Positions 25,633-64,000 of a DNA stretch of 64,000 nucleotides are shown here, piece by piece (positions within the stretch are counted from its first letter, which is position 1; the number at the start of each line of letters is the position of its first letter). The stretch is from assembly GCA_963796275.1 (NCBI GenBank), contig CAWCKY010000006.1, forward strand, positions 96,001-160,000, written 5' to 3'. Origin of the DNA: an uncultured Acidobacteriota bacterium (GTDB lineage Bacteria; Acidobacteriota; Blastocatellia; RBC074). Made by a program: the position numbers and the translations under genes. The notes beneath the pieces are model-generated. The model saw nothing but the letters and a program-made list of their open reading frames with translations. It made no database searches and was not told where the DNA came from.

Positions 25633-28600
25633 ATGAGTAACAGAAGTAATATCTCAAACTCGATTGACAGACACAGTATCGCCATTATCGGAATGGCAGG
25701 AAGGTTTCCGGGAGCCGGAAATATAGAGGAGTTCTGGCGGAATCTCTGTGACCGCGTAGAATCCATCTCTTTCTTTACCGAGAAGGAGTTAATGTCCTCC
25801 GGAGAAGCGTCTTCAGCCATAAAAGACCCTCACTATGTTGGTGCGCGAGGAATATTGGAGGGCGTCGAACTGTTTGACGCCTCCTTCTTCGGTTTCTATC
25901 CCAAAGAAGCCCAACTGATGGACCCGCAACACCGGCTCTTTTTGGAATGCGCTTGGGAGGCGCTCGAGGATGCAGGCTGTGTAACCGAGAGTTATGAAGG
26001 AGTAGTTGGTGTCTTTGGCGGCGCCGGAATAAACAGCTACTTGTTATCAATCCTTTCTCAGAAGCTGGAAGGCTTAAACGCGGCCGAATGGTACCAACTT
26101 GCGATTGGGAACCATAGTGATTTTTTGACTACACGAGTCTCTTACAAACTGAACTTGCGAGGCCCAAGTCTGAATATCCAAAGCGCCTGTTCTACCTCCT
26201 TAGTGGCGGTCCACGTGGCCTGCCGGAGTTTGCTCGGGCGTCAATGCGATATGGCGCTGGCGGGCGGCGTGGCTATCGGTCTGCCGCAAAAGAGAGGCTA
26301 TCTTTTTCAGGAGGGAATGATTCTCTCTCCCGACGGACATTGCCGGGCCTTTGACGCGAAAGCCCAAGGAACTGTACCCGGTAACGGTGTGGGGATTGTC
26401 GTTCTGAAGCGCCTCGCAGACGCCATCGCCGAGGGGGATCATATCTACGCTGTGATCAAAGGCTCCGCCGTGAATAATGACGGCTCTCTCCGAGTCGGGT
26501 TCACCGCGCCGGGCGTCGCAGGTCAAGCGGAAGTTATTGCCACCGCCCATGAGATCGCCGGGATCGATCCCGAGACGATCACCTATATTGAAGCCCATGG
26601 TACCGGAACTTCATTGGGCGACCCTATTGAAATCGCGGCGCTGACGCAAGTCTTTTGTGAGAAGACCGAGACCAAAGGATTTTGCGCCATCGGTTCGGTC
26701 AAGACAAACCTTGGGCATCTGGATGCGGCTGCGGGCGTGGCCAGCTTGATCAAGACGGCGCTGGCTCTTGATCGCGGTATGATTCCACCCAGCCTGAACT
26801 TTGAGCAGCCCAATCCGAAGATCGATTTCAGTGGGGGCCCCTTTTATGTGAACACGGAGCTTTCCCAATGGATGGCGGGCGATGCGCCGCGCCGCGCCGG
26901 CGTCAGCTCCTTCGGCATCGGAGGCTCCAACGCGCATGTCGCCCTCGAAGAAGCTCCCGCGATCGACAGTTTCGCATCGAGACCCTGGCAGTTACTGGTG
27001 TTGTCGGCGAAAACGGATTCCGCGCTGGAGACAGCCACTACGCGACTGGCCACTCATCTGAAAGGGCATTCAGACCTCAACCTGCCAGAGCTTAATCTGG
27101 CAGATGTGGCCTACACATTGCAGGTTGGCCGCAAGGCGTTCGCCCATCGGCGAATCCTTGTTTGCCAAACGCTTGAGGGCGCCAGGAACGCGTTGGAAAT
27201 AAGCGATCCCAAACGAGTCTTTTCAGCTTCCGTCGCTTGTGAGACTGACTCTCGTCCAGTCGTCTTTATGTTCAGCGGGCAGGGCGCCCAATATGTGAAT
27301 ATGGGGTTTGACCTCTATCAGGCCGAGCCTATTTTTCGAGAGACGATAGATTACTGCTCGGAATTGCTCAAACCCTATTTGGATTTGGATTTGCGCGATT
27401 TACTTTATCCCACTTCGGAAAAAGTGGAAGAGGCCGCTGCGCGATTGAGCCAGACTCGCGTCACACAGCCCGCCTTGTTTGCCATTGAGTACGCGTTGGC
27501 CAGGCTCTGGATGGAATGGGGGATCAGACCGCAGGCCATGATCGGGCACAGCGTCGGGGAGTACGTCGCGGCCTGTCTAGCCGGCGTTTGCTCGCCGGAA
27601 GACGCGTTGAGGCTGGTGGCCGCGAGAGGACGTTTGATGCAGGGGGCTCCGCAAGGCGCCATGCTCAGCGTACGACTCGAAGAGTCGGCCGCGCGCGATC
27701 TACTCGGCGGCAAGCTTTCATTGGCCGCGGTCAACGGGCCGGCGTCCTGCGTCGTTTCCGGGCCGCGCGACGCGATAGTTGAAATGGAGCAGCGATTGAC
27801 AGCGGAGGGCGTGGACCATCGCCGGTTACACACCTCGCACGCCTTTCACTCGGAGATGATGGACTCCATCTTGAAATCCTTTGAGAGGGAGGTCGAAAAA
27901 GCCACTCTCCGGTCTCCCCAGATTCCCTACGTGAGCGACCTCACGGGAACCTGGATAACGGAGGCGGATGCGACAGATCCTGGCTACTACGCGAAACACC
28001 TTCGGCATACAGTCAGATTCGCGGATGGGATCGGCGAGCTGTTGAATGATCCAAACATCGTTCTGTTGGAGGTCGGGCCGGGGCAGACTTTAAGCGCTCT
28101 GGCGCGGGAGAACAGCGGTGCCGCGCGAGGACGGGTTATTCTCAATTCCACACGCCATCCGCACGATCAGCAGTCGGACGTTTCCTTCATCCTCAACACG
28201 TTGGGCAAACTCTGGCTTGCCGGGGTCAAGATAGATTGGCCCGGTTTCTATGCGAAGGAGAGGCGGCTACGCGTCTCTTTGCCGGCATACCCGTTTGAAC
28301 GTCAGCGTTACTGGCTCGATGTGAAGGAATCAGCGATCACCGGCGACGTTTATCAATCAAGTTCGCAGGCAGGTTCGCGAGCAGGCTCGCGGGAGATCGC
28401 GGACTGGTTTTATGTGCCTTCCTGGAAACGCGCCGATTTACCCAGGGGGCTCGCGGCGAATGTGGCGCCAAATGAGGCTTTGGATGAAAAAGTAAACTGG
28501 TTGCTGCTGATCGATGATCACGGGCTTGGCTCTCTTCTGGCTGAGCGGCTCGTTGATCGGGGACAGGATGTGATCACAGTCAAAATGGGCAGGCGATTCG

Positions 28601-30360
28601 AGCGGATCGGCGAGCGCGCTTATGTTCTCGATCCGCAAGCGCGCGCCGATTATGATGCGCTACTGGCAGCGCTGATCGAACTGAAGAAAACCCCTCAAAA
28701 AATAGCCCATTTCTGGAACGTGACGCCGACTGACCAGGTCAGGCCCGGCCCTGAGTTTTTTGAAGAAGCGCAGGCGGCCGGTTTTTACAGTTTGCTCTAT
28801 CTCGCCCAGGCTCTCGGTCGGCGAAATGTTACGGACCAGTTGCGGCTCTGGGTCGTCTCAACGAATCTGCAGGAGGTGACGGGTGAAGAGCTGCTATGTC
28901 CCGAGAAAGCGACTTTGTTGGGGCCTTGCCAGGTCATCTCTCAGGAGTGTCCGAACATAGCCTGTCACAGTCTCGATCTGATCATTCCCGATTCGCGAAG
29001 GCCGACCGGATTGATTGATGAGATCCTGATAGACAGGCTCATCACAGAATTCTCCGCAAATATCTCGGCCGATCGCACGATCGCTTATCGTGGAAATCAC
29101 CGGTGGGTGTTGAACTATGAGCTGGCGCCTGCGGATGGCTTTAGCAGGGGCTTATCCCGGTTAAGACAAGGAGGCGTGTACCTCATTACCGGCGGACTCG
29201 GGAAGATCGGGCTGACGATCGCGGAACATCTGGCTCGGACGGCGCATGCGAAGTTGATCCTGATAGGTCGCTCTGAATTCCCGCTGAGGGACGAGTGGGA
29301 TCAATGGCTCTCAACACACGAAGAGCGGGACCAGGCGAGCCGCATAATTCGGAGGCTGATGGGGATTGAGGAGGCGGGCGGCGAGGTCTTGGTTCTAAGC
29401 GCGGATGCCGCCAATGAACGGCAGATGCAAAAAGTGATCGCTCGGGCTGATGATCGGTTTGGCCGGATACATGGCGTTATCCATGCCGCCGGAGTAGTTG
29501 GAGAGAAGGCGGTCCGAACTATTCAAGAGATAGACCCGGATGAGTGCGCCTCGCAATTTCAAGCGAAGATTCACGGCCTGAACGTGTTGGCCCGCACGCT
29601 GAGCGGGAGGGAGCTTGATTTCTTCATACTGCAATCATCCCTGTCATCGGTTTTGGGTGGACTGGGGTTCGCCTCCTATTCTGCGGCCAACCATTACCTG
29701 GACGCGTTTGCCCGCAAGCAGAGTCAGACGAATGGCGTCCAATGGGTCAGCGTGAATTGGGACGGCTGGCGGTTCGATGAGGAGAAGAGATTCGGCGCTG
29801 CAACGGTCGAGTTAGCCATCTCGCCGGAAGACGGCGTCGAGGTTTTCAAACGCCTTCTCTCCGTAGACGGGTTCAATCAAGTCATCATTTCAACCGGAGA
29901 CCTGCAAGCGCGGATCGGCAAATGGATTAATGGTGAGGCGAAACTGGAGCCGAAGGCCGAGGCGCGATCGAACTCTTCTGCATCGTCGGCCTCCCGGCCT
30001 CAACTGCAAACGACCTATGTCGAGCCCGGAAGTGAGCTAGAGCGGCGTATCGTCGAGGTCTGGCAAAATCTGCTGGGGATCGAGCCGGTGGGAATCCACG
30101 ATAACTTCTTTGAGTTGGGCGGCGACTCTTTGCTCGGCACTCAGCTGATCGCTCAGCTTCGCAGCATCTTCCAGACGGAGTTTCCCATGCGCAGCCTCTT
30201 CGAGGACTCGACTGTGGCCGGGGCGGCGAAGATCATCGAGATGGCATTAAGAGATGGGCAGAGCCCGGTTGATAAACTTACTGAAGCGTTGAAAAAGGTG
30301 GAAGGACTTTCAGATGAAGAGGCCGGCGCGCTGCTCGCCGGATTTCAGTCTCGTGGGTGA
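25633..30360 (+). CDS. Type I PKS module KS-AT-KR-ACP (hybrid-type KS, malonyl AT)
   Basis: KS: QSACSTS, EAHGTGT, KTNLGHL. AT: GHSVG, HAFH. KR: GGLGKIG, YSAAN. ACP: LGGDSL. C-terminal LSDEE docking helix. Confidence 0.95.
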   Translation: MSNRSNISNSIDRHSIAIIGMAGRFPGAGNIEEFWRNLCDRVESISFFTEKELMSSGEASSAIKDPHYVGARGILEGVELFDASFFGFYPKEAQLMDPQHRLFLECAWEALEDAGCVTESYEGVVGVFGGAGINSYLLSILSQKLEGLNAAEWYQLAIGNHSDFLTTRVSYKLNLRGPSLNIQSACSTSLVAVHVACRSLLGRQCDMALAGGVAIGLPQKRGYLFQEGMILSPDGHCRAFDAKAQGTVPGNGVGIVVLKRLADAIAEGDHIYAVIKGSAVNNDGSLRVGFTAPGVAGQAEVIATAHEIAGIDPETITYIEAHGTGTSLGDPIEIAALTQVFCEKTETKGFCAIGSVKTNLGHLDAAAGVASLIKTALALDRGMIPPSLNFEQPNPKIDFSGGPFYVNTELSQWMAGDAPRRAGVSSFGIGGSNAHVALEEAPAIDSFASRPWQLLVLSAKTDSALETATTRLATHLKGHSDLNLPELNLADVAYTLQVGRKAFAHRRILVCQTLEGARNALEISDPKRVFSASVACETDSRPVVFMFSGQGAQYVNMGFDLYQAEPIFRETIDYCSELLKPYLDLDLRDLLYPTSEKVEEAAARLSQTRVTQPALFAIEYALARLWMEWGIRPQAMIGHSVGEYVAACLAGVCSPEDALRLVAARGRLMQGAPQGAMLSVRLEESAARDLLGGKLSLAAVNGPASCVVSGPRDAIVEMEQRLTAEGVDHRRLHTSHAFHSEMMDSILKSFEREVEKATLRSPQIPYVSDLTGTWITEADATDPGYYAKHLRHTVRFADGIGELLNDPNIVLLEVGPGQTLSALARENSGAARGRVILNSTRHPHDQQSDVSFILNTLGKLWLAGVKIDWPGFYAKERRLRVSLPAYPFERQRYWLDVKESAITGDVYQSSSQAGSRAGSREIADWFYVPSWKRADLPRGLAANVAPNEALDEKVNWLLLIDDHGLGSLLAERLVDRGQDVITVKMGRRFERIGERAYVLDPQARADYDALLAALIELKKTPQKIAHFWNVTPTDQVRPGPEFFEEAQAAGFYSLLYLAQALGRRNVTDQLRLWVVSTNLQEVTGEELLCPEKATLLGPCQVISQECPNIACHSLDLIIPDSRRPTGLIDEILIDRLITEFSANISADRTIAYRGNHRWVLNYELAPADGFSRGLSRLRQGGVYLITGGLGKIGLTIAEHLARTAHAKLILIGRSEFPLRDEWDQWLSTHEERDQASRIIRRLMGIEEAGGEVLVLSADAANERQMQKVIARADDRFGRIHGVIHAAGVVGEKAVRTIQEIDPDECASQFQAKIHGLNVLARTLSGRELDFFILQSSLSSVLGGLGFASYSAANHYLDAFARKQSQTNGVQWVSVNWDGWRFDEEKRFGAATVELAISPEDGVEVFKRLLSVDGFNQVIISTGDLQARIGKWINGEAKLEPKAEARSNSSASSASRPQLQTTYVEPGSELERRIVEVWQNLLGIEPVGIHDNFFELGGDSLLGTQLIAQLRSIFQTEFPMRSLFEDSTVAGAAKIIEMALRDGQSPVDKLTEALKKVEGLSDEEAGALLAGFQSRG

Positions 30361-33300
30361 GTATCGTGAGCGATCTTTATAAACAAATCTCCAGACTATC
30401 AGGTGAGAAACGCAGGCTCTTCGATCTGTACTTGCAGAAAGAGGGCGTGACTTTCTCAGAGTTGTTGATCGTCCCTCAAGAGAAGAGAGGCTCCGATCAT
30501 TTCCCGCTCTCTTTCGCCCAGCAGCGGCTTTGGTTTCTCGACCAGTTGGAGCCTGGGAATCCGCTCTATAACAATCCAGCCGCGATTCGTTTCACTGGCC
30601 CTCTCGACCGGGCGGCTTTGGAGCAGGCTCTGAATGAGATTGTCGGGCGGCATGAAATTTTGCGCACTACCTTTACGATGGTGAGTGGCCAGCCAGTCCA
30701 GGTTATCGCTCCCAAACTCATCCTAACTCTTCCGGTGGTTGACCTGCGAACCAAACCAGAGGTCGAGCGGGAAGATGAGGTTATGCGGCTAGCCACCGAG
30801 GAGGCGCGGAAACCATTCAACCTGTCTGAGGGGCCGCTGCTCCGCGTCATTCTGATGAAGCTGGCCGAGGAGGAGCACGTGGTCCTGCTGACCATGCATC
30901 ACGTCGTATCCGACGGTTGGTCGGTCGGAGTGCTCATTCGGGAAGTCGCGGCGCTCTATGAAGCTTTTACCAGCTGTGCGCCGGCGTCGCTGCCCGAACT
31001 TCCAATTCAATATGTGGATTTCGCCGTCTGGCAGCGAAAGTGGCTGACGGGGAAAAGGCTCGATGAACAGTTGACTTACTGGAAACAGCATCTAGCCGGC
31101 GCCGCACCTACATTGGAATTGCCAGCAGATCGCCCCAGGCCGGCGGCGCAGACCTATCGCGGGGCCACTCGCTTCTTCAACCTGCCAGTGGATGTTTTTC
31201 GTGCGCTGAAGGAACTGAGCCGTCAGAACGACGCCACGCTCTTCATGACAATGCTGGCGGCCTTTCAAACGATGCTCTACCGCTATTCGGGACAAGAGGA
31301 CTTCTGCGTAGGAGCGGCCGTCGCCAATCGCAATCGAGTCGAGACCGAAGGGCTGATCGGGTTTTTTGTCAACATGCTGGCGTTGCGCTGCGACCTGTCG
31401 GGCGATCTCAGCTTCCGCCAATTGCTCGAGCGGACGCGGGAGACGGCGCTGGGCGCATTGGCGCATCAGGATCTGCCGTTTGAAATGCTGGTGGAAGAGC
31501 TGCAGCCGCAACGGAACAGAAGCCACACGCCGCTGTTTCAGGTGATATTCGATCTCAACAACGCCGCGCCCGGCGCCATGGGCGCCTTGAAACTTGCGAA
31601 CCTGAAAGCGGAGGCGCTTCAGGTAGAGGCCGGCGTCGCGCATGCCGATCTGGTCATGAGTTTGATGGAGAACGGCGACGCGCTCAGTGGCAAATTGAGA
31701 TACAACACCGACATCTTCGATGCCGCGACTATTGAGCGAATGCTGGAGCATTTTCAGGTTCTGTTGATAGGCATCGCCGCTGATCCGGATCGGCGCGTTT
31801 CAGACATGCCTCTTTCGACCGAGGTGGAACGGCGCCGTCTCTTGTCAGAATGGAATGACACCGCCTCTGAGTATCCGCGCAATAAATGCGTGCATGAGTT
31901 GTTCGAGGCGCAGGTGGAGCGAAGCTCCGACGCGATTGCGCTGGTGGTCGAGGAGGAGCAGCTTACCTACCGGGAGTTGAACCGCCGGGCCAATCAACTC
32001 GCCGCCTACCTCGGAAAGCTCGGGGTCGGGCCGGAAACGCCGGTGGGCTTTTGCCTGGAGCGTTCCCCGGAGATGGTCGTCGGTATCCTCGGCATCTTGA
32101 AGGCCGGTGGAACCTACGTGCCGTTAGACCCGGCGTATCCCAAAGAGCGCCTGGCCTTCATGCTGGAAGATACTCGGACGCCGGTGATCCTGACTCAGCA
32201 AAGGTTGATCGAGCACCTGCCGGAGCATCAGGCCAGTGTCGTTCGAATAGACGCAGACTGGGAATTGATGACAGAGGAGAGCGAGGCGAATCGGGCGAGC
32301 GGGGCGACAGCCGGTCATCTGGCCTACATCATGTACACTTCAGGCTCGACCGGCAGGCCGAAAGGGATCGCCATCCAGCACCGGGCCATCAACCGGCTGG
32401 TCTTCAATACCAACTACATCGAGATAACGCCCGAGGACCGGATGCTGCTGGCGTCGAACTCGGCCTTCGACGCGGCGACCTTCGAGTTGTGGGGCGCGCT
32501 GCTGCACGGAGCGCGGCTGGTGGGGGTCAGCAGAGAGGCGGTCATATCGCCTCGGGAGCTCGCCGCCTCCATCCGCGATCACGGAATAAGCGCGATGTGG
32601 CTGACGGCGGCCCTCTTCAATCAAATGACGCGCGAAGTCCCCAAGGCTTTCGGCGCCGTGAAACACCTGCTCATTGGGGGCGAGGCGCTTGATCCCCACC
32701 GGGTGCGAGAGGCGCTCAAGAATGACCCGCCCGCTCGGTTGGTGAACGGGTATGGGCCGACGGAGGGCACGACCTTCACTACCTGGTACCTGGCGCAAGA
32801 GGCAGCGGAAGGAGCGAGCTCCATTCCCATAGGTCGACCTATCTCTAACACGCAAACATATTTGTTGGATCGTAACCAACAGCCCACGCCCATAGGGATT
32901 GCGGGCGAGTTATACATCGGTGGGGATGGACTGGCGCGCGGTTATTTCAATAGGCCGGAGCTGACGGCGGAGAAGTTCGTCCCGAATCCATATAGCGAGC
33001 GGCCGGGCGCGCGGCTCTACCGGACGGGAGACCTGGTCCGTTACCTGCCGGATGGCGCGATTGAGTTCCTGGGGCGGCTCGATCATCAGGTGAAGATCCG
33101 CGGTTTCCGCATAGAGTTGGGCGAGATCGAAGCTGCGCTCAACCGGCATCCGTCGGTGAGAGAGAGCATCGTTCTCCTCAGGGAGGATGCGCCGGGCGAG
33201 AAGCGGCTGGTAGCCTACCTCGCGACCGAGTCGAGGAAGGCGTTCACAGTTGATGATCTCCGTAACTTCTTGCGGCAAAAGTTGCCTGATTACATGACCC

Positions 33301-36140: not shown

Positions 36141-36265
36141 ATACTGGTACGAGTTTTTCTTCATATACACCTTTACACCTTGGCTGAGGACGAACAAGGC
36201 AACGAGATCATACCCATGGCGTAATAGTCAGCAACGTTATGGAAGGCAGGCGATGGAGCAGACAC

Positions 36266-46226: not shown

Positions 46227-46231
46227 TGCGT

Positions 46232-46335: not shown

Positions 46336-46941
46336 ATGGAGATAGTTATCAAACCGGCGATCAACAACGAAGAGCGCGACTCGATGTTCCGCGTACGGCA
46401 GGAAGTCTTCGAGCGCGAATGGGGGATCGGGCTCGCGCAATTGCGGGCTTATAACGAGACCGCCTTACATTTACTCGCCCTGGTCGAGCCTGGCGAATAT
46501 CCGGTCGCGGCGCTCACCGTGGTGGACACAAGCGGCGATCAACAGCTCCACGAGAGCTACCGTTTGGGCTTCGCACCGCACACTCGCGCGGCGCGCTATA
46601 CCCAACTCGCCGTGCTCAAGCCTTATCGCGGGATGGACGTCCCGGTGCGGATGATCCTCGAAGCGCATCACCGCTTCGTCGTCCCCGGCCGGTTCGATTA
46701 CACCTGGCTGTTATTCGACGCACGGCACGCCGCGTCGTCGTCGCTCTGCCAGTGGCTCGCTTTTTCCGCGAGCGAGCAAGCTTTCGCGTCCGAATACGGC
46801 TTCAGCCGCTCGTTGGTAAGAGACGAGCGCACGCAGCGCTGCAAACGAGCCATCCGGCGAGTAGAGCGGTATTTTGGGCAGAGCGCGTGGCCTTTATTGC
46901 TTGCGAAATCGCAGCGCGAGCAGGTCGGATCATCTAGATAA
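46336..46941 (+). CDS. GNAT-fold acyltransferase-like protein
   Basis: FRVRQEVFEREWG, ALHLLA and RYTQLAVLKPYRG resemble the GNAT/ElaA/acyl-amino-acid synthase fold; GGAGG RBS. Confidence 0.65.
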   Translation: MEIVIKPAINNEERDSMFRVRQEVFEREWGIGLAQLRAYNETALHLLALVEPGEYPVAALTVVDTSGDQQLHESYRLGFAPHTRAARYTQLAVLKPYRGMDVPVRMILEAHHRFVVPGRFDYTWLLFDARHAASSSLCQWLAFSASEQAFASEYGFSRSLVRDERTQRCKRAIRRVERYFGQSAWPLLLAKSQREQVGSSR

Positions 46942-50272: not shown

Positions 50273-50277
50273 AGTTT

Positions 50278-50553
50278 GAGGATCGAGAATTGAGGATAGA
50301 CTCAAACCTCGATCTTCCTGACCCCCCCGGATTTTGTGGCTTAGCCCTGACGGGCGGAATATTTATAGCTGTTCGCTTATCGAAAAGTTGTCTTTAGTTC
50401 CAGCGGGGCGGCATCTTCACGGCTAGATGTCGCTCCGCTGGTAGTTTGAGAGCTTTTCCTTGCTGGAACTATAAACATTCCGCGCCGCTGGCGTTCCCCA
50501 GATGCTTAACTCACAAAATCCGGCGGGATCAGCGATCTTCAATCATTGATCTC
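50278..50553. repeat. GAGGATC-type heptamer hairpin with a nested REP/MITE-like element (50323-50527)
   Basis: Terminal IR CCGGATTTTGTG ... CACAAAATCCGG; internal stems CCAGCGGGGCGGCATCT/AGATGTCGCTCCGCTGG and GCGGAATATTTATAG/CTATAAACATTCCGC. Confidence 0.8.
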
Positions 50554-50569
50554 GGAGGAAGGAAGAACG

Positions 50570-53500: not shown

Positions 53501-56500
53501 GCGGATCGGGAAGCGCCATGGCTGTTGTTCGTCGATGAATGTGGGCTGGGCAATCAAATGACGCGCCGTCTGGAGCAGATGGGCCAGGATGTTATTTGCG
53601 TGGCGATGGGAGAGGAGTTTGGCGAACGCGGCGATGGCGCATACATGATTAACCCGCGACAAGGCGCCGACTATCAAGCTCTGCTGCAATTGCTGCGAGC
53701 GCGGAAAAAGCTTCCGCAAAAGATAGTTCACCTGTGGGGCGTCGCGCAGGACGCGGAACCCGAGCAGGCGTTAAACAACGGCTTCCATAGCCTGCTGTTA
53801 CTGGCCCAGGCGATCGGCGCGGAGAAGATAACTGATCAACTCCAAATCGAAATCGTTACCAATAACATGCAAGAAGTTGTCGGCGGCGAGACCCTCTACC
53901 CGGAGAAGGCCGCCGCCATCGGCGCCTGCCGAGCCATTTCGCAGGAATACCAGAACATCGCCTGCCGGAGTATAGATATTGCCCTGCCAGGTTCGGCCCT
54001 GACAGATAGCGAGGGATTGCCGAAGGAGCGATTGGTTGACCAACTCATCTCGGAAGTCGCAGCCGGGCCGAAGCCATCTGAAAGTGTAATAGCCTACCGC
54101 GGCCATCATCGCTGGTCGCAGACCTTTGAACCTATGTCACTGCGTGGTTCGGCCGAGCGCTGGTTGCGGCTGCAGACGGGCGGCGCCTATCTCATTACCG
54201 GTGGGATGGGCGGGATCGGTCTCGAGCTGGCGGAACATCTGGCGCGCGCCGTGCGTGCCAAGCTGATCTTGACCGGACGTTCTGCTTTTCCAGAGAGAGA
54301 GACTTGGGATGAATGGCTGGCCGCGCACGATGAACAGGACGCGGTGAGCTATAAGATTCGGAAGCTCAGGTCTATCGAAAATCTTGGGGCGGAAGTATCG
54401 GTCCTCTGCGCAGATGTAACTGATAAAGAGCGGATGCGAGATGTGATCGAGCGTTTCGGCCCGATTCACGGCGTAATCCACTCAGCGGGCGTGGCCGGCG
54501 GCGGCATGATCCAGTTGAAGACGCCGGAGGCGGCGGCCGGCGTTCTGGCTCCCAAGGTACAAGGAACGCGCGTGCTCGAAGAGATATTAAAAGACCAGAA
54601 GATGGATTTCCTCGTGCTCTGTTCCTCGCGCAGCTCGATCCTAGGGGGATTTGGCCAGGCGGATTATTGCGCCGCCAACGCGTTTCTCGACGCATTCGCC
54701 CACTACCACAATGCCAGCAGCGATACCTTCACTGTCTCGATCAATTGGGCTGGCTGGCAGGAAGTAGGCATGCGCGCTGACACACTGGCCCAACTGGGAG
54801 TCAAGACGAATCAGCAACCATCCACAGTTATAGAGATCGGGCATCCGTTGCTGGAGAGATGTATAGAAGCTACGCCTGAACGCGCAACCTATTCCACCCA
54901 ATTCGGCGTCAGCACTCACTGGGTTTTGGATGACCATCGTATTATGCGCCAGCCAGTCATTCCCGGAACGACATATCTGGAGATGATTCGCGCCGCGTTG
55001 GAGAGGCACGCGGATGGCCGCACCCCGGAACTGCGCGATGTCTTTTTCCTCTCAGCCCTGCCCGTCAGAGAAGACGAGACCAGGGAGGTTCGGGCTGTCA
55101 TAGAAAAAAGCGGAGACAAGAATGAAGACGAATTCGAGTTCAGGGTCTTGAGCAAAATGCAGTCGGCCGGCGACGAAACCTGGCAGGAGTTCGTGATCGG
55201 CAAAGCCCGCTTGACAGAGCCGGAGCCGCCGAAGCGTCACGACATCAAAGCGCTCATCGAAAAGTGTAACATCAGGGAAGTCATTATCACGGACGACAAT
55301 CCAATCGTCACCTACGAAGACTTGGGTCCCAGGTGGCAAAGTCTCAAACAGGTCTTCATCGGCCACAACGAACTGGTCGCTGTGTTGGAGTTGCCAGAAG
55401 CCTTCGCGGCGGATGTCGAGACGTACAAACTGCATCCCGCCCTGCTGGACAAGGCCAATTTCACAGCTAAAGTCTTCCTGGCAGCCGAGGGGTTGCACCT
55501 GCCGATGTCATACCGGGGGCTGCGGATCAAACGGCCATTACCCAGCAAGATCTATGCGTACGCCAGATACAAACCGAACGGCGATCCATTGTTCGAAACG
55601 ATCACCTTCGACGTCATCCTGATGGATGAAGACGGACTGGAACTGGTGGAGATTGACGAGTTCAGTCAGAAACGGGTGAGAGAAGTCGCCGAGTCAATTA
55701 AAGCGATGGGCATTCAGGAAGCCCGCCGCAATGTTGCCAATCGTAACGGCGCGAACCGCTATAGTAGCGCGAATGGAGGGACCAGCAGTGATGGGCGCGA
55801 GATACTCAACGAAGGAATGTCGCTCCGCGAAGGGGTCGAAGCGTTCAGACGTATTCTGGCCTACAACACGTCGCCGCAGGTGATCGTCTCGCCCAATGAT
55901 TTAATGGCCGTAATCGAGCAGTCGCAGGCCGTGAGAGAAATGCGCCTGACGGAAGATCTGGGGAGTCTCGATGTAGCCCGGCCCAGGCATGCGCGGCCCG
56001 ATGTGCAAACCGCCTATGCCGCTCCGCGCAACGAACTGGAACAGACCCTGGCCGATATCTGGCAAGAGACGCTCGGGATCGAGCAAGTAGGCGTCCACGA
56101 CAACTTTTTCGAGCTGGGCGGTGATTCCGTGGTCGGCATTCAAATGACCGCCCGTTTCAAACGGGCGGGCTATCAGTTATCGCCGCTGCAGCTTTTCCAG
56201 AATCAGACCATCGCCGAGTTGGCTGTGGCTCTTGGCTCAACCCTGCCCGTAAAGATCGAGCAGGGAGTGGTCACAGGGCTGGTCCCATTGACGCCAAGCC
56301 AGCGATGGTTCTTTGAACAGAACTTGCCGGACCCGCAATATTTCAACCAGGCGTTGCTCTTGGATGTGCGGCAAGGTATAGACCCCATTTTGTTGAAGGC
56401 TGTCGTTCATAAGCTGCTGGAGCATCACGACGCGTTGCGCCTGCGCTTTGAACAAAATGAGTCTGGCTGGACACAGATCAACAATGGAACCGATGAGACG

Positions 56501-57808
56501 ATCCCGTTCATGCGGATTGATCTGTCACAAACGCCCGTGTCGAAGCGAGAATCGGCCATCAGGACCAAAGCCGCCGAATTGCAGGCTGGCCTGGATCTCA
56601 GCAGCGGCCCGCTTGTGCGATTCGCTCTCTTTGAGTTTGAAACTCTAGATTTCAATAAAAAGGAATTTGGAGCTCCGCCTTCAGGCGGTGAGTTTGTCGG
56701 GTCACAAAGACTGGCTGAAGCAGGAACTCCCAACCGGTTACTGATCGTCGCTCACAATCTGGTCATTGACAGCGTCTCGTGGGGGATTCTGCTGTCGGAT
56801 ATGGACACGGCGTATCAGCAACTTGCCCAAAGTGGCAGGGGCGAGCCATTTCTACTTCCGCCCAAAACCAGTTCGTTCAAGCAATGGGCCGAAAATTTGG
56901 CGAAGTATGCGCAATCGGATGCGCTGCGGCAAGAGGGCGACTACTGGCTGTTGGAATCGAGCAGGCGCGTCGATCCTCTGCCCATTGAGCGCTTTTCGGG
57001 CGCCAATACGGAGGCGTCTGCAAATGTCGTTTCGGTCTCGTTGGAGGTCGAAGAGACTCAAGCCTTGCTGCAAGAGGCGCCGCAGGCTTATCACGCCACG
57101 GTCAATGACCTGCTGCTGACTGCCGTCGCGCAGGCTTTCGCTCGGTGGACGGGAAATGGCTCGCTGCTGATCGAGCTGGAGGACCACAGTCGTGATGCCC
57201 TGGTCGGAGGCCTGGACCTTTCCCATACGGTGGGTTCGTTCAGTGCGGTCTATCCGATAGTACTCGAATTGGCGGATGGCGGCGATCCGATGGAAGCGTT
57301 GGGCGAATCGTTGAAGGCGATCAAAGAACAACTGCGCCGCGTTCCCGGGGGCGGCTTCGGCTACGGCCTGTTGCGCTATCTGAGCGGGAATGAAGAGATA
57401 GCGGAGAGGCTACGATCTTTACATCAGGCGGAGGTGAGATTCAGCTACCTGGGCCAGTTCGATCAGGTTTTGCAGGAATCTTCTCCGTTTATGCCGAGCC
57501 GCCGCACTATAGGCGCGCTCCGCAGCCCGCGAAGAGATCGCAGTCATTTGCTGGAGATCAACGGCGTCACCCAGCGAGGGCGGCTGCGACTGGATTGGAC
57601 TTACAGCGAAAATTTGCATCGCCGTGCGACGATCGAGCGTCTCGCTCAGGATTTCGTCGAAGCGTTGCGGCGATTGATCGCGCATTGCCAGAGCCCAGAA
57701 GTTGGTGGCTATACCCCATCCGATTTTCCGCTGGCCAATGTCAGCCAGAGACAGCTTGACGGCCTGATAGCCAGATTCAGTAAGACGCAGACTTCAGTTA
57801 AGCGCTGA
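50570..57808 (+). CDS. Hybrid PKS KS-AT-KR(with inserted DH)-ACP-E (degenerate)
   Basis: KS: QTACSTS. AT: GHSVG, HAFH. KR: GGMGGIG, YCAAN. DH: HRIMRQPVIP, HPALLD. ACP: LGGDSV. E-like domain with HNLVID, EDHSR and TPSDFP. GTG 50570 follows GGAGG. Confidence 0.93.
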   Translation: MSKSKTHNSADGVAIIGLAGRFPGARNINEFWQNLRDGMETISFYSDEELKASGVDPALLDDPGYVKAHGAIDGIEWFDAPFFGVNPREAGIMDPQQRLFQECAWEALEDAGYNPEKYEGSIAVYAGVGVPTYAMVNVFSNPGLRQSVGALQTSIRNRTDHLATQVSYKLNLRGPGVTVQTACSTSLVAVHLACQSLLGGECDIAMAGGVTIAIPQKAGYLYQEGGILSPDGHCRAFDARAQGTVPGSGAGVVVLKRLGDALADGDCIHAVIRGSAINNDGSMKVGYTAPGVDGQAQVIAEAMAVADVEPETISYIETHGTGTNLGDPIEIEALARAFRGDSDKKGFCAVGAVKSNIGHLDTAAGVAGLIKTVLALRHKQIPPSLHYDQPNPRIDFENSPFYVNTRLSEWKRGETPRRAGVSSFGLGGTNAHIVLEEAPDELDLSGASDVVDSGDGRAWRALLLSARTSSALENATAQLAEYLQGHAEANLADIAYTLQVGRKAFGRRRAVICRNGDAVVSLETLDPKRVYTGVQEARERPVVFMFPGQGAQYVNMGLDLYQVEPVFREHVARCCELLKTHIGFDLRDVLYPSQDPLSDDWPGQDWPSQNWRGQDWIEEAAELLKQTWVTQPALFVIEYALARLWMEWGVHPRAMIGHSVGEYVAACLSGVLSLKDALALVAARGRLMQSLPEGAMLVVPLSEPELLPLLTRRLSLAAVNGSATCVISGPTDDVVELERRLTARGLGCRRLHTSHAFHSQMMDPILDPFAEEVKKIKLSPPNIPYLSNVTGSWIRADEATDPNYWAKHLRQTVRFADGSRELVKDQDWVLLEVGPGKTLMTLVRWHPERVAGQIALTSLPQPAPAAQDVTQRIHGSLPEDLVENVDSAFLLKTLSRLWIAGAEVDWTAYYSNEQRRRVPLPTYPFERQRYWVEPQTQTYGGVHTQTALLKKPNIADWFYVPSWRRSAPHSPVEALELADREAPWLLFVDECGLGNQMTRRLEQMGQDVICVAMGEEFGERGDGAYMINPRQGADYQALLQLLRARKKLPQKIVHLWGVAQDAEPEQALNNGFHSLLLLAQAIGAEKITDQLQIEIVTNNMQEVVGGETLYPEKAAAIGACRAISQEYQNIACRSIDIALPGSALTDSEGLPKERLVDQLISEVAAGPKPSESVIAYRGHHRWSQTFEPMSLRGSAERWLRLQTGGAYLITGGMGGIGLELAEHLARAVRAKLILTGRSAFPERETWDEWLAAHDEQDAVSYKIRKLRSIENLGAEVSVLCADVTDKERMRDVIERFGPIHGVIHSAGVAGGGMIQLKTPEAAAGVLAPKVQGTRVLEEILKDQKMDFLVLCSSRSSILGGFGQADYCAANAFLDAFAHYHNASSDTFTVSINWAGWQEVGMRADTLAQLGVKTNQQPSTVIEIGHPLLERCIEATPERATYSTQFGVSTHWVLDDHRIMRQPVIPGTTYLEMIRAALERHADGRTPELRDVFFLSALPVREDETREVRAVIEKSGDKNEDEFEFRVLSKMQSAGDETWQEFVIGKARLTEPEPPKRHDIKALIEKCNIREVIITDDNPIVTYEDLGPRWQSLKQVFIGHNELVAVLELPEAFAADVETYKLHPALLDKANFTAKVFLAAEGLHLPMSYRGLRIKRPLPSKIYAYARYKPNGDPLFETITFDVILMDEDGLELVEIDEFSQKRVREVAESIKAMGIQEARRNVANRNGANRYSSANGGTSSDGREILNEGMSLREGVEAFRRILAYNTSPQVIVSPNDLMAVIEQSQAVREMRLTEDLGSLDVARPRHARPDVQTAYAAPRNELEQTLADIWQETLGIEQVGVHDNFFELGGDSVVGIQMTARFKRAGYQLSPLQLFQNQTIAELAVALGSTLPVKIEQGVVTGLVPLTPSQRWFFEQNLPDPQYFNQALLLDVRQGIDPILLKAVVHKLLEHHDALRLRFEQNESGWTQINNGTDETIPFMRIDLSQTPVSKRESAIRTKAAELQAGLDLSSGPLVRFALFEFETLDFNKKEFGAPPSGGEFVGSQRLAEAGTPNRLLIVAHNLVIDSVSWGILLSDMDTAYQQLAQSGRGEPFLLPPKTSSFKQWAENLAKYAQSDALRQEGDYWLLESSRRVDPLPIERFSGANTEASANVVSVSLEVEETQALLQEAPQAYHATVNDLLLTAVAQAFARWTGNGSLLIELEDHSRDALVGGLDLSHTVGSFSAVYPIVLELADGGDPMEALGESLKAIKEQLRRVPGGGFGYGLLRYLSGNEEIAERLRSLHQAEVRFSYLGQFDQVLQESSPFMPSRRTIGALRSPRRDRSHLLEINGVTQRGRLRLDWTYSENLHRRATIERLAQDFVEALRRLIAHCQSPEVGGYTPSDFPLANVSQRQLDGLIARFSKTQTSVKR
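52367..52417 (+). repeat. 15-bp in-frame tandem repeat (DWPGQ-DWPSQ-NWRGQ-DW) in the AT domain
   Basis: GATTGGCCAGGTCAG-like unit, about 3.4 copies. Confidence 0.85.
56666..56734. repeat. REP-like palindrome inserted in frame in the E domain
   Basis: TTTGGAGCTCCGCCTTCAGGCGG ... CTGGCTGAAGCAGGAACTCCCAA; absent from the paralogous E domain at ~61550. Confidence 0.75.
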
Positions 57809-57834
57809 CGGAAAAGTTTCGAGGCGCAATTGTC

Positions 57835-57947: not shown

Positions 57948-57980
57948 CCGAACAATTTTTGCCTGACCGCTTAGGTGAGT

Positions 57981-60900
57981 ATGGAAATTCAAGATTTGTA
58001 TCCTCTGTCTCCGTTGCAACAGGGGATGCTCTTTCATGATCTCTACGCCCCGGAGTCTGGGATGTATGTCGAACGTCTCAGGTACACGATCCGGGGAGAC
58101 CTGAACGTGGCGGCGTTCGAGCAGGCCTGGCGACAAGTGGTGGAGCGTCACCCGGTCTTGCGTTCGGCTTTCATTTGGGAAGAAGTGGATGAGCCGCTGC
58201 AGGCCGTATTCCGCGAAGTAGAGACCCCCCTGGAATTCCAGGATTGGCGCGGTGCGCCTGTCGCCGAGCAGGAAGAGCGGTTGCAGGCTCATCTTGCTGG
58301 GATATTGCAGAGAGGATTCAAACTCTCCCGGCCGCCGCTTCAGATGTTGACTCTGATCCAAATGTCGGACCGGATCAGCGAGTTTATCTGGAGCTATCAC
58401 CACCTGCTGCTTGATGGGTGGTCGGTCTCCTTGATTCTGGGCGAGATCATCACGCTCTACGAAGCCTTCTGCCAGAGACAGAATGCGCAATTGGAAAAGA
58501 TCCGCCCCTATCGCGACTACATCGCCTGGCTGAAGCGCCAGGATCAAGCCGAAGCCGAGGCCTTCTGGCGCAAAGCGTTGAAGGGGTTTACCCCTCCAGC
58601 TGCTATCTCGATGAACGGAGCGCACGACGACCTGACTGGACGGCAAGAGGACTACGAATCGCTGCAGATGCGCCTTTCAATAGAGACGGGTGAAAGATTG
58701 GATGCTTTCGCCCGCCGGCATCGTTTGACAGTGAATACCGTGGTGCAGGGGGGCTGGGCGTTGCTGCTGAGCTGCTATAGCGGGGAGCAGGACGTGGTCT
58801 TTGGAGAGGTTGTCTCCGGCCGCCCGCCTGATTTGGCTGGGTCGGAGTCGATGGTGGGCATGTTCATCAATACCTTGCCAGTGCGGACGCAGGTATCCCC
58901 TGAAACTTCGGTGTTGTCCTGGCTGGAGCGACTCCAGGCGCGGCAAATCGAGGCGCGCCGGTACGAATACAACCCGTTGGTCAAAGTGAGGGAGTGGAGT
59001 GAAGCGCCGCGCGGGCTGCCATTGTTTGAGAGCATCGTCGTCTTTGAAAACCCGACAATGGGCGTCCGGTTAGGCCGTCAGGAAGGAAGCCCGGAGATCA
59101 GCTATTCGACCCATTACGCCACTATCACAGGCTATCCGCTCACCGTGGTGATCGAGCCAGGCCCCGAGGGTGTGTTGGTGGTATTTACCTATGATCGCCG
59201 TCGCTTCAAGTCCGACGTGATACAGCGAATGCAGATGCGTTTCCAAACCTTGTTAGATGGCGTCCTGGCCGATCCCGAACGACGCCTCTCGGATTTGCCG
59301 CTGTTGACGAAGGCCGAAGAGCGGCAGCTTGTTCGAGAGTGGAATCGCGCTCAGGCTGAGCATTCGACAGAGGCATGCTTTCATCAGTTGTTTGAGGCGC
59401 AGACCGAGCGCACGCCCGATGCGGTGGCCGTCGTTTTTGAAGATAACCAACTGGATTATCAGGAGCTGAATAAACGTGCGAATGAGTTGGCGCATCATTT
59501 GCGCAACCTAGGCGTGGGGCCGGAGGTGTTGGTGGGCGTCTGTCTGGAGCCTTCCATCGAAATGATGGTGGGCTTGTTGGGCACACTTAAAGCAGGTGGC
59601 GCTTATGTGCCGTTGGATCCGAGCTATCCGGAAGAGCGTCTGGCTTTTATGCTGGAAGATGCCGACGTGGCGGTTTTGCTCACGCAACAAAAATTGGCGG
59701 AGCGACTGCCCAAGCGTCAGGCCCAAGTCGTTTGCCTCGATGCCGACTGTGAGAGCATCGCTAAACGGAGTGGAAGGAATCCGGCCAACCAATCGGGACC
59801 AGATAATCTGGCTTATGTGATTTATACCTCTGGGTCCACGGGCAAGCCTAAAGGAACATTGATCACGCATCGCGGATTGACCAATTACTTACACTGGTGT
59901 CTTTCTGCTTACCCGTTGCAGGAAGGTCGCGGTTCGCTGGTTAACTCCACCATTGCCTTTGACGCCACCATCACCGCGATCTTCAGCCCATTATTGGCCG
60001 GACGTACCGTCAGATTGCTTCCTGACATTATCGACGTCGAAGCGCTGGGGACCGCGCTGGGCCAGGAAGGAAATTACAGTCTGATCAAAATTACTCCGGC
60101 GCACCTGGAAATTCTCAGCCACCAATTGTCGCCGGAAAAAGCTGGCGCACTTGCCAGGTCATTCATCATCGGAGGAGAAAACCTGGTGGCGGATCGAGTC
60201 GCCTTTTGGCAAGAACATGCGCCCGATACGCTTTTATTTAACGAATATGGTCCTACCGAGACCGTGGTGGGCTGCGCGGTCTTCGAGGCGCGCCAATGGC
60301 GGGGAAGAGGCTCGGTGCCCATCGGCCGGCCAATTCACAACACGCAGGTTTATGTTCTGGATGGTCACCGACGGCCGGTTCCGATCGGGGTGGCAGGTGA
60401 ATTATTCATCGGCGGCGTTGGTGTGGCGCGCGGCTATTTGAATCTGCCCGGGCTGACCGCCGAAAAGTTCGTCCCCGATCCATTTTCTGATGAGCCGAAG
60501 GCCCGACTGTATCGGACTGGAGATATGGTGCGTTATCACGCTGACGGGAATATGGAATTCCTGGGACGCGCTGATGAACAAGTCAAGATTCGAGGTTACC
60601 GTATCGAGTTGGGAGAGATCGAATCGGTGCTGAACCAGCACCCCGCGGTGTGTGAGAGCGCGGTCATCGCTCAAGATGACAAACGCGGTAATAAGCGTCT
60701 GGTAGCTTACCTCGTCACCGATCCCGCGGCCTCGCTTTCCGAGCTTTCAAGCAAAGAGTTGCGCGGATTCATCAAGACGAAGCTGCCAGACTATATGGTG
60801 CCTTCGGCCTTTGCATTGCTGGATGCTTTGCCCCTGACGCCGAACGGTAAAGTTGATCGCCGGGCGCTGCCCTCGTTGCATGAATCACGGTCTGATTCGC

Positions 60901-63900
60901 GCGATTCGTCAGGAGGCGCCCGCGACCCCCGCAATAGGGTGGAAGAGATTCTGGCCGGGGTCTGGGCTCAGGTTCTCGGCATTAAGCAGGTGGGAATACA
61001 CGATGACTTCTTCGAGATGGGCGGCGATTCCATTCTCAGTATTCAGGTAGTCAGCAAAGCTAATCAGGAGGGGCTGCGTGTAACTCCCAGGCATATCTTC
61101 CAGCATCCGACTATCGCCGAGCTGGCCTTGGTGGTGGATACAGCCGTGACGATCCAGGCCGAGCAGGGGCTGGTGAAGGGGCAATTCCCGCTGACGCCGA
61201 TCCAGCATTGGTTCTTTGAACAGAATCTTCCTGAACCGCATTATTGGAACCAGGCGATTTTGCTAGATGTGCGGCAGGCGCTGGACCCCTCGCTCTTGCA
61301 GCGGGCTGTCGGGCTATTGCTTGCGCATCACGACGCTCTGAGGCTGCGCTTCGAGCGATATGAATCGGGTTGGCGCCAGAACAATGCCGGATGGGATGAA
61401 GCGGATCGATCCTTGATCACATTCGCCCGCGTCGATCTGGCGGACGTTACCGAACGTGAACGAAGCGCGGCTATTGAAGCCAAGGCGGCAGAGTGGCAGG
61501 AGAGTTTGAATTTATCGCAAGGGCCGCTGCTGCGTGTGGTGCTCTTCGATCTCGGACCACGGCAATCCAGCCGTCTGCTGATCTTGATTCATCATCTGGC
61601 GATTGATGGAGTCGCCTGGCGCATCCTGGTGGAAGACTTGATGACCGCCTACCAGCAATTGAGCCGGGGCGAGAATGCGCAACTGCCGCCCAAGACGACT
61701 TCCTTCGGAGATTGGGCCCAAAAATTGGCGGCGTATGCGCGAACGACCGAGCTGAAACAGGAGTTGGGGTATTGGCTGGCACCGGCCCGCGTCAGGGTGC
61801 CTCGCCTGCCAATGGATTATCCGGAGGGGCCCTGGGCCAACACTGAAGTCTCCGCCCGCGTCGTGTCGGTCTCGTTGACCGTTGAAGAAACACAGGCTCT
61901 GTTGCATGAAATTCCGAGCGCATATCGGACTCAGATCAACGATCTATTATTGACGGCTCTCGCACAATCCTTCTCGCAAATGACCGAGTCGCGAGCGCTG
62001 TTGGTTGATCTGGAAGGCCACGGACGGGAAGCGATATTTGACGACGTGGACCTCTCGCGCACCGTGGGCTGGTTCACGGCGATCTTTCCGGTGCTCTTGA
62101 ATCTGGAAGCTTGGGAGCCGGGAGAGGCTTTAAAGTCGATCAAAGAGCAGCTTCGCGCCATTCCGAACCGAGGCGTCGGCTATGGTCTGCTGCGTTACTT
62201 GAGTGGAGATGAAGAGATCGCCGCGCAGTTGCGACAATTGCCGCAAGCCGAAGTGAGCTTCAACTATCTGGGCCAGTTCGATCAACTGCTGCCTGAAGGG
62301 GCGCTGTTCGGGCCAGCCACGGAATCCGTCGGGCCGGCACGTAGCCCGCGGGATCTCGCCGCTATCCGCTGGAAATCAATGCATTCATCACCGGAGGCAG
62401 ATTGCAGTTGGAGTGGACCTACAGCGAGCGCATTCATCGCCCCGAGACAATCGAATATCTGGCCCAAAGTTATGCTTCGGCCCTGCGCGCGCTCATCTCC
62501 CATTGCCTGTCTGCAGAAGCAGGCGGTTACACTCCCTCGGACTTCCCGCTGGCGAATTTGAAGCAGTCGAAGCTGGATTGGCTGACCGGCGCGGATCGCG
62601 AAATCGAAGACATTTATCCGCTGGCGTCCGTGCAGGAGGGGATGCTCTTCTACACTCTTTTAACGCCGGAGTCCGGAGCTTATGTCACTCAGATGATCTA
62701 TCAACTGGAAGGCTTAAACGTCGAAGCGATGAAGCGGGCCTGGCAACGGGTCTTGGACCGTCATCCGGTTTTGCGAACCGCCTTCGTCTGGAAGAACCTC
62801 GATAACCCGCTTCAGATAGTCCGCCGGCGGGTGGATTTGGGCATAGAGGAAGAAGACTGGCGCGGGATATCTCCTGATGAGCGAAAAGAGCGCTTTGACA
62901 ACTTTTTGAAAGCGGAGTCCTCGCGCGGTTTCCCGCTTTCCCAGGCGCCGCTGATGCGGATGACGCTTTTCCGGGCGTCGGAGACTAGCTATCAATTAGT
63001 CTGGACCTACCACCATCTATTACTTGACGGTTGGTCTGTGCCATTGCTGGTCAAAGAATTTCTGAGTTTCTATGAAGCTTTTGACAAAGGGCAGGAGTTA
63101 CAAGCGGAGCGCGGCCGTCCCTATCGTGACTATATCGAATGGCACAGGCGGCAAGCCCATTCCAGTGCTGAGGCGTTCTGGCGGAGGTTGCTCAAAGGCT
63201 TCGCCTCACCCACACCACTGGGGTCGCTCGGGGCGATAACGGATCAATCGCTGAAGGAGAGCGGGTATGCCGAGCAAGAAGTCAGGCTGGATGAAGCGAC
63301 GACGGACGCCCTTTATTTCTTTGTTCGAAGTCAGCGGCTGACCCTGAACATTCTATCGCAGGCGGTTTGGTCATTGATGTTGTCCCATTACAGCGGCAGC
63401 AAGGATGTTGTTTTCGGCGCTACCCTTTCGGGACGGCCGGTCGATTTACCGGGCGCGGAGACGATGATCGGTTTGTTCATCAACACGCTGCCGGTTAGGG
63501 CGCGAGTCGCGCCGGAGATGCCATTGACGCAGTGGCTGAGAGAACTGCAAGCGCAGCAAGCGGAGATACTGCCATATGAGAGCAGCCCGCTCAATGAGGT
63601 CCAGCGGTGGAGCGATGTTCCACAGGATAAGCCTCTGTTTGAAAGCATCGTAGTTTTCGAGAACTTTCCGATGGATGGCGTCCAGTCGCTCCAGGACCGA
63701 GGTCTGAAGTTTGTCAACACCGGCTTCATTATTAGGAACAACTTCCCTCTCACGCTGAGAGTCGTGCCTGGTTCACGGTTGTTATTGAATATTCTGTATG
63801 ACAACGGACGATTTGCGGCCGATACCATCGCCGGGGCGCTGGCGCAGTTTGAAATGCTGTTGCGGAACATCGTCGCTCAGCCCGAGGTCAAACTGTCAGA

Positions 63901-64000
63901 GTGCCTGGAAACGCTGGCCGAAGCCGACCGCCGCCGCCGGGGCATGAAAGAGGAAGAATTCAAAGCTGTCAGCCGTCAGAAATTGCGAAATATCAGGCGG
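57981..64000 (+). CDS. NRPS C(DCL)-A(Asn)-PCP-E-C(DCL), running off the window; 1-nt frameshift at 62350-62352
   Basis: C: HHLLLDG. A code read by eye DATKIGEVGK (Asn type). PCP: MGGDSI. Intact E motifs HHLAID, EGHGRE, RTVGWF. Adding one G restores SPRGSRRYPLEIN...TPSDFP...IEDIYPL...HHLLLDGW, open to 64000. Confidence 0.9.

Follow-up and report, generated by a model that had tools for sequence, protein, structure and literature searches.

The 64,000-nucleotide stretch of DNA analyzed here (the window; C6:96001-160000 within a 9.46-Mb, 7-contig genome of an uncultured Acidobacteriota bacterium, ~54% GC) holds the first third of a polyketide synthase (PKS)/nonribosomal peptide synthetase (NRPS) line whose modules probably do not act in the order of their genes. 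Nine genes on one strand (+), here called g1 to g9, fill positions 25633 to 64000 (Table 1). From comparison with related loci, we favor the non-colinear working order g4 > g3 > g1 > g2 > g6 > g7 > g8. A reordered line had been proposed in an earlier note on this DNA, and it is the best-supported reading on the strength of a ketosynthase (KS) tree, a fused homologue in genome G403, and a link from g2 to g6. The other domains named below are acyltransferase (AT), ketoreductase (KR), dehydratase (DH), enoylreductase (ER), acyl carrier (ACP), condensation (C), adenylation (A), and peptidyl carrier (PCP) domains, along with interface (I), epimerization (E), thioesterase (TE), and fatty acyl-AMP ligase (FAAL) domains.

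Order of the first modules

A tree was built from 139 KS domains of the window and 111 fetched loci, using domain profiles (hidden Markov models) made from the window. It split 100/39 on a branch of length 0.53, with the KSs of g1 and g7 in the clade of 100 and that of g4 in the clade of 39. Directly upstream of the KSs in the larger clade lay an A domain (69 cases, 61 with a strong match), nothing (18), a KR (6), a locus edge (5), a C domain (1), or an ER (1). The seven nearest neighbors of the g1 KS all follow an A domain, as do all 10 members of the clade of g7, itself included. In the clade of 39, the upstream neighbor was nothing (25), a KR (7), an "A" match (5), or an edge (2); a strong NRPS A match stands upstream of only two of the 39, g4 and its orthologue in the related genome G001, and the other three "A" matches are weak (50-78 bits) and look FAAL-like. 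Because g1 and g4 served as queries for retrieving the loci, the clade sizes are biased; the upstream labels played no part in retrieval. Six relatives of g4 with longer flanks read as initiating PKSs: three are solitary, a C-starting NRPS follows the other three, and in no case does an NRPS module come first, although one of the six is preceded by a weak (48-bit) adenylate-forming domain. A ranking against Protein Data Bank entries agrees with the tree: the KS-AT of g4 scored best against CurL, DEBS, and MAS, and that of g1 against 8xjy, which we suspect to be a colibactin ClbI/ClbH pair. Judged by the tree, the KSs of g1 and g7 are of the hybrid (NRPS-fed) type and that of g4 is of an initiating, non-hybrid type, in agreement with the earlier note, for which KS phylogeny was a check on its reading.

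The earlier note had also remarked that nothing precedes the hybrid KS of g1. An A-PCP module (g6) does lie directly upstream of g7 and none lies directly upstream of g1, where the only features found were a TPR gene (g0), a non-coding leader in two copies, an Nramp gene, and genes of sugar metabolism; this position appears to result from a 3.6-kb deletion. The nearest named relatives of g1 are in a Blastocatellales metagenome-assembled genome (MAG) with 80% identity (G001, locus L063) and an Acidobacteriota MAG with 68% (G002, locus L001). The gene order in G001 is gX-TPR-g1-g2-g3-g4-g5-g6-g7, where gX is an extra C-A(Phe)-PCP gene, and that in G002 is gX'-g1-g2-two small unrelated ORFs-g6-g7, without g3 and g4. 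Positions 23086-23592 and 24359-24866 of the window both match the 520 nt directly upstream of gX in G001 (blastn). The leader is 78% alike to L081 8654-9172 and homology resumes at L081 12766 (blastn); in the window, homology to G001 picks up again at 24896, within the TPR gene. Relative to G001, this genome lacks ~3.6 kb that holds gX and the beginning of the TPR gene. The junction lies at the 3' end of the leader, whose copies are 88-100% alike. Since a feeder sits at this place in both relatives, we infer that gX was deleted in this lineage, and g1 would stand first in the line because its feeder was lost. The TPR protein encoded by g0 is 69% identical to that of G001 from residue 11 onward, its N terminus having been replaced at the junction, and it adjoins g1 in G001 too. 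The leader itself, a long conserved non-coding region of low GC ahead of gX in G001, had no match for its duplicated unit in Rfam.

Within this genome, gX is matched best by g3, with only 52% identity (g3 and its G001 orthologue share 71-75%), and gX of G001 has a pocket code identical to that of g3. As a paralogue of gX, g3 is the only remaining candidate feeder of g1 here. In G001, gX is intact and g3 is split within its A domain (frames of 625 and 515 aa; L063:22607-25949), a break that is unverified in what is an 8x short-read MAG. If the break is real, each genome has exactly one intact feeder, which fits redundancy of the two. The domain set of g1 (KS-AT-KR-ACP without DH) is that of a statine-type module, for which g3 would be the feeder in trans.

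A tree of 201 C domains placed those of g3, its G001 orthologue, and both gX proteins in one 9-member clade (support, 0.94). This clade includes three C domains that come directly after a PKS and before A-KS (L002, L050, and L064) and two more at locus edges or with nothing upstream; none of its members follows an NRPS A domain. Phylogeny, another check named in the earlier note, puts the C domain of g3 in a PKS-fed or starter clade. The C motif of the gX proteins of the relatives reads HHS.TDM.

The same succession is colinear, and partly fused, in G403, a Candidatus Coneutiohabitans MAG (Zhuqueibacterota). A single 4036-aa frame there reads FAAL-ACP-KS-AT-DH-ER-KR-ACP-C-A-PCP, with 49% identity to g4 (2221 residues) and 47% to g3 (1095 residues). 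To its 3' side follow a g1-like KS-AT-KR-ACP (57%) and then a g2-like C-A-PCP (52%), and the genes upstream of the fused frame are unrelated and on the opposite strand. A PKS, then C-A, then KS-AT-KR, and then C also occur in L050, L059, and L064. These arrangements match the order g4 > g3 > g1 > g2 of the earlier note and, taken with the trees, make the hand-overs from g4 to g3 and from g3 to g1 each somewhat more probable than their alternatives.

The last 25 residues were compared among 62 PCP-ending ORFs that precede a KS-starting ORF and 15 that precede a C-starting ORF. Net charge was at least +2 in 53 of the 62 PCP-to-KS tails; in the group before C-starting ORFs, 11 of the 15 tails were net negative and many carried LS(D/E)E(E/D). 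Two PCP tails, those of g3 and g6, had been taken as KS-feeding. The tail of g6 is strongly basic (+7) and agrees; that of g3 shares the motif but has a net charge of -1. An LG ending was found, among the 62, in g3, its orthologue, and the two gX proteins alone. The proposed docking strings of g1 (LSDEE, C terminus) and g2 (LSGEKRRL, N terminus) are present, but they belong to a generic PKS/NRPS-to-C class and add little for two genes that already overlap, the start of g2 lying 4 nt inside the end of g1. As a side observation, a TauD domain in another MAG (L041:8790-9725) lies directly upstream of a KS-AT-KR gene whose KS is in the hybrid clade although no A domain precedes it; this may be another rearranged line.

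From g2 to g8

In g2, a TauD domain is fused behind a second C domain at the C terminus of the protein. The two C domains of g2 carry canonical motifs (HHVVSDG and HHITSDG), the second being catalytically intact by motif. The N-terminal domain of g6 reads LPSICADA in place of HHxxxDG and has no His; across 12 aligned domains of this type, both His are gone and C and D are invariant. In the C-domain tree it falls in a 13-member clade, 9 members of which are directly preceded by a C domain. The His-less motif and the clade placement bear out the I-type domain with which g6 was said to begin; the I domain was reportedly defined by Reitz et al. in 2019. An alignment of 12 TauD domains gave the iron motif as H98-N99-E100 together with invariant H207, H223, and H292.

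The g2 and g6 genes are separated by g3, g4, and g5 in the window and in G001. In G002, orthologues of g6 (57%) and g7 come after g2, with only two small ORFs between. The cluster contains five split modules in which an I domain follows a C domain (I domains at C6:142982, 160116, 171149, 194223, and 206452), and other genes lie between the halves at three of the five junctions, namely, g3-g5, a tailoring cassette (164907-171086), and an unknown gene at 204676. Because the C-then-I junction occurs five times and is interrupted in three, we interpret g3-g4-g5 as a cassette that sits within the junction of a split module. The gene order of G002 and these five modules agree with the g2-to-g6 link of the earlier note, a hand-over that we regard as very probable. 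Three other I-modules of the cluster read Asp. Complex prediction for the g2 TauD and the g6 I domain (12-row alignments) scored 0.00, which speaks neither for nor against binding.

Pocket codes were extracted with motif anchors, positions, and a code table after Stachelhaus. They read DAWTIAAVCK (Phe) in g3, DAFWLGGTFK (Val) in g2, DAKDLGVVDK (Glu) in g6, and DATKIGEVGK (Asn) in g8, and all four specificities given previously hold. The sole check on register was the code of g3 against the Phe code of GrsA, which agree at 9 of 10 positions. All three KSs (g1, g4, and g7) keep Cys-His-His in the C, HGTG, and N.GH motifs. The AT of g4 (window 41256-42170) has GHSAGE and VPYH, versus HAFH or YASH in malonyl or methylmalonyl ATs, and its extender unit is not predictable from this atypical motif; the ATs of g1 and g7 have HAFH. 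The KRs of g1 and g7 show neither the LDD nor the W signature, so their stereochemistry is not readable.

In g7, the KR precedes the DH, as in 17 of 36 DH domains that were compared. The catalytic His and Asp of the DH are retained (HRIMRQPVIP and LLDKANF), with Arg for the Gly of HxxxGxxxxP and no Q/H after the Asp. A vinylogous unit had been claimed for g6-g7; the KS, AT, KR, and DH do follow an NRPS module and the DH residues are kept, which leaves the vinylogous product plausible. The terminal domain of g7 is E-like and reads AHNLVIDS, the second catalytic His being Asn. An E-like domain in the same ORF was seen in 5 of 16 KR-DH modules, and the second His is replaced by N here, by Y in both G001 and G002, and by P in L077, with HH only in L049. 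The C domains of g8 and g9 (HHLLLDGWS) are of the type found after E domains, and we regard the g7 E-like domain as a dead relic, the partner of the DCL-type C domain with which g8 begins.

In G001 and G002, g8 and g9 are one ORF. Here, one base is missing near 62349, beside GATC, and the break moves the end of the E domain into the frame of g9. A contig of metagenome run X3 (~91% identical) has one extra G behind 62349, and run X1 (contigs at least 99% alike) does not cover the position. The line has six such mid-domain frame breaks (C6:158349, which is window 62349, 175462, 177074, 196497, 210352, and 213554). Five of the six lie within 5 nt of GATC, against ~8% of random positions, a figure that is soft since the breaks were chosen by eye; the sixth reads GAATC. 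Systematic base-calling errors occur at methylated motifs, and we think that these breaks are errors of this kind. Pseudogene decay was our first reading of the downstream breaks and was downgraded on the GATC pattern, again for breaks picked by eye.

Proposed assembly and competing readings

From the domains, motifs, clade memberships, synteny, and missing gX described above, we infer the following hand-overs between proteins, hydroxylation site, and product. The g4 PKS would make or extend an acyl chain as chain starter, which the C domain of g3 would couple to Phe. After addition of malonate and reduction by g1, the chain would be an N-acyl statine-type unit, 4-amino-3-hydroxy-5-phenylpentanoyl (Ahppa), to which g2 would add Val. 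The second C domain of g2 and the interface-A(Glu)-PCP of g6 would form one split module, in which the fused TauD could hydroxylate tethered Glu. Malonate addition, reduction, and dehydration by g7 would then give a vinylogous (beta-hydroxy)Glu unit, and g8 would add D-Asn ahead of ~13 further NRPS modules.

Put together, these steps suggest a ~20-residue lipopeptide in which Ahppa and vinylogous beta-hydroxy-Glu flank Val, started in trans by a cassette lying inside a split C/I module. In this joint account, gX and g3 would be interchangeable feeders of which one is kept per genome, and g7's dead E-like domain, taken with g8's DCL-type C domain, would be a relic of gamma-carbon epimerization at a vinylogous residue, an activity perhaps live in the HH-bearing L049. 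As a whole, it is a tentative construction that we hold to be less likely than not. In the literature searched, neither an Ahppa-Val-vinylogous hydroxy-Glu scaffold nor a matching compound or cluster was found.

Several observations weigh against the order proposed here. The g3 gene lies directly upstream of g4 and has a KS-type tail, making a colinear g3-to-g4 transfer physically plausible, and gX coexists with g3-g4 in G001, where g3 need not feed g1. Hybrid-clade membership is a tendency and no rule, given the 18 KSs with nothing upstream and the 6 that follow a KR. A loading domain is missing from the g4 protein, and the cluster contains neither a FAAL nor a FAAL-ACP loading didomain; the only FAAL homologue (50%), at C4:45195-46895, belongs to another cluster. 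G403 is from another phylum and only 47-57% identical. The g6 code reads Glu, versus Asp or His in published C-TauD/I modules, and the six mid-domain frame breaks could mean a defective line.

The last of these points leads to the strongest competitor, in which the loss of gX removed the only true feeder of g1, g3-g4 are colinear or idle, and no full-length product is made. We consider this unlikely. It would account for the precise absence of gX behind a surviving leader, for the frame-broken g8/g9 and five further domains, and for the splitting of the last A domain of the line by a DUF3326 gene. However, g1 to g7 are intact ORFs over 32 kb with every catalytic motif, the breaks sit at GATC or GAATC and look like base-calling error, an NRPS frame of 9359 aa at another place in the genome has no break, and g3 shares its Phe code and tail type with gX. 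No RNA run on record contains the stretch, which leaves no evidence either way on expression.

If g3 and g4 were instead a transposed block, g3, with a starter C domain taking an acyl-CoA, would feed g4, and the ACP of g4 would feed the KS of g1, giving acyl-Phe-C2(saturated)-C2(hydroxy)-Val as the start. This is a poor prospect. Although the two genes are adjacent (28-nt gap), the tail of g3 is of the PCP-to-KS class, and the g3/gX C clade has two members with nothing upstream, the KS of g4 belongs to the non-hybrid clade, where no other member (the G001 orthologue aside) follows a strong NRPS A domain, and the KS of g1 groups with seven nearest neighbors that are NRPS-fed. The G403 fusion runs from PKS to C-A-PCP, not the reverse, and in G001 and G002 the carrier domain ahead of g1 is a PCP and not an ACP. 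A strictly colinear line, in which g1 starts and g2, g3, g4, and g6 follow in gene order, has the single strand, the short gaps, and the 18/100 hybrid-clade KSs with nothing upstream in its favor, but it is very improbable, as g2 would hand over through two successive C domains (its own second and that of g3), g6 lacks a catalytic C domain that could take the chain from the g4 ACP (LPSICADA), and g6 comes right after g2 in G002.

Whole line, related systems, and significance

The proposed order covers the beginning of a line of ~115 kb (C6:121633 to ~230000), which runs on beyond the window as the earlier note had expected. Domain scans and Pfam found 17 A domains and three PKS modules. The A codes, read with the same table as above, are Val, Phe, Glu, Asn, Asp, Asp, unread, Ile, Gly, Phe, Ile, Asp, three unassigned, Val, and unassigned. 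Besides the dead one of g7, the line has four E domains, and its last domain is E-like; a search for an in-line TE found none. Three TauD enzymes are present (fused to g2, stand-alone, and as C-TauD), along with tailoring genes (SbnA-like, SbnB-like, two carbamoyltransferases, MbtH-like, and a stand-alone thioesterase) and exporter genes (MacB, MFS, and HlyD/ABC). The cassette at C6:164907-171086 (L115:4907-11086), between two NRPS genes, encodes a NodU-type carbamoyltransferase, an OTCase-like protein, the SbnA-like and SbnB-like enzymes, which by analogy we take to be a diaminopropionate route, and the stand-alone TauD. The last A domain (C6:225366-228212, L118) is split after ~42 residues by the DUF3326 gene (C6:225494-226813).

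At the DNA level, the 1644 nt of the g3 A domain (window 37562-39205) are 98.2% identical to C6:186850-188493, with flanking C and PCP domains only 28-60% identical, which points to a recent exchange of A domains. Similar identical stretches were seen for the A domain of g2 and for two Asp modules at C6:159948 and 171104.

The line would yield a lipopeptide of ~20 units that is large, acidic, and hydroxylated. A small inhibitor of the dual-warhead kind suggested in the earlier note does not accord with 17 A domains, three TauD enzymes, and several Asp modules, and protease inhibition through two warheads is speculation.

Table 1. Positions (window coordinates) and content of the genes and the leader
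Feature	Position	Strand	Content
leader	22380..24877		Tandem-duplicated non-coding low-GC stretch, unit ~1274 nt
g0	24866..25624	+	TPR-repeat protein; TPR_1 2.8e-43
g1	25633..30360	+	KS-AT(HAFH, malonyl)-KR-ACP; KS 25669-26967, AT 27256-28122, KR 29167-29778
g2	30357..36140	+	C-A(Val)-PCP-C-TauD; second C residues 1114-1557, TauD 1604-1894
g3	36239..39547	+	C-A(Phe)-PCP; C motif HHIVADL; tail gX-type, ends LG
g4	39576..46226	+	KS-AT-DH-ER-KR-ACP, fully reducing PKS
g5	46336..46941	+	201 aa, without Pfam family
g6	46967..50272	+	Weak (interface-type) C-like domain-A(Glu)-PCP; basic, KS-feeding type of tail
g7	50546..57808	+	KS-AT(HAFH)-KR-DH-ACP and E-like domain 56273-57694
g8	57975..62561	+	DCL-type C-A(Asn)-PCP-E
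g9	62402..64000+	+	E-domain end and DCL-type C; runs past window

The ORFs of the window were checked, and their domain sets were assigned with Pfam at E-values from 1e-10 to 1e-300 across g1-g9; the domain content is not due to chance. All domains listed previously are present; g5, the E-like domain of g7, the g8/g9 frame break, and the lost feeder gene had been overlooked, and the start given for g3 (36266) is an internal Met of an ORF that begins at 36239. No Pfam match to g5 was found, even at E = 0.01; it is kept at the same position in G001 (76% identity). Language-model features suggest a GNAT/FeeM-like protein, which is only a lead, and g5 may have a part in priming g4 or g3. Condensation-domain matches in the genome number 93, against only three type-I PKS ketosynthases, all at this locus. 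Four metagenome runs contain part of the stretch (three labeled soil and one plant), one of them with contigs at least 99% alike. Nothing stated here depends on the unpublished genome G154.

In our reading, the cluster is an orphan of known kind with some uncommon module features. Its split module resembles those of beta-hydroxy-Asp siderophore NRPSs (potashchelin PtcB, cupriachelin, and taiwachelin) in having C-TauD at a protein end and a C-like-A-PCP as the next module, the C-like domain here lacking both His. An excerpt of PMC7100376 gives the layout of potashchelin PtcB as C-TauD, with C-A(Asp)-PCP on the protein that follows. Here, in contrast, the code is Glu rather than Asp, the residue would then be extended by a PKS, and three genes lie between the halves.

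The g6-g7 pair shares with the syringolin/glidobactin, thalassospiramide, and barnesin lines an A-PCP followed by a partly reducing PKS with KS, AT, KR, and DH, the set that vinylogous amino acids require after the NRPS according to an excerpt of PMC13096860. It differs in the order KR then DH, in the E-like domain after the ACP, in a mid-chain unit outside any 12-membered ring, and in its substrate, probably hydroxy-Glu. In statine-type modules (didemnin B and burkholdac A), a KS elongates an amino acid and ketoreduction is the sole further step, as stated in an excerpt of PMC11187115. The proposed counterpart here of those modules, and of those for Ahppa in thalassospiramides and cabrillostatin D, is A(Phe) paired with KS-AT-KR-ACP, a likeness of domain set, and the feeder and KS genes are not adjacent here. 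The FAAL-ACP-PKS-NRPS lipo-initiation of G403 has the same reducing PKS, C-A-PCP, and KS-AT-KR-ACP in succession, whereas no FAAL-ACP is present here and the PKS and NRPS are separate genes located downstream of the modules that they would feed.

A precedent for the dual-warhead idea is miraziridine A, which pairs a statine with a vinylogous residue; an excerpt of PMC3250042 describes it as a peptide from Theonella that inhibits several protease classes, and its biosynthesis is unsolved according to an excerpt of PMC13096860. Miraziridine A is a pentapeptide that contains Leu-statine, vinylogous Arg, and an aziridine, whereas this line has 20 modules, with Phe and Glu.

This cluster, known here from MAG sequence alone, is a worked case in which gene order misleads structure prediction and comparative genomics can recover the likely module order, by means of a fused homologue, the gene order of relatives, and domain trees labeled by upstream neighbor. 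It places TauD/interface split modules outside siderophore-type Asp chemistry and brings out a recurrent KS-AT-KR-DH-ACP-E-like module type in uncultured soil bacteria. If the proposed order is true, the N-terminal part of the product would join two protease-inhibitor pharmacophores whose combination is otherwise known from miraziridine A.

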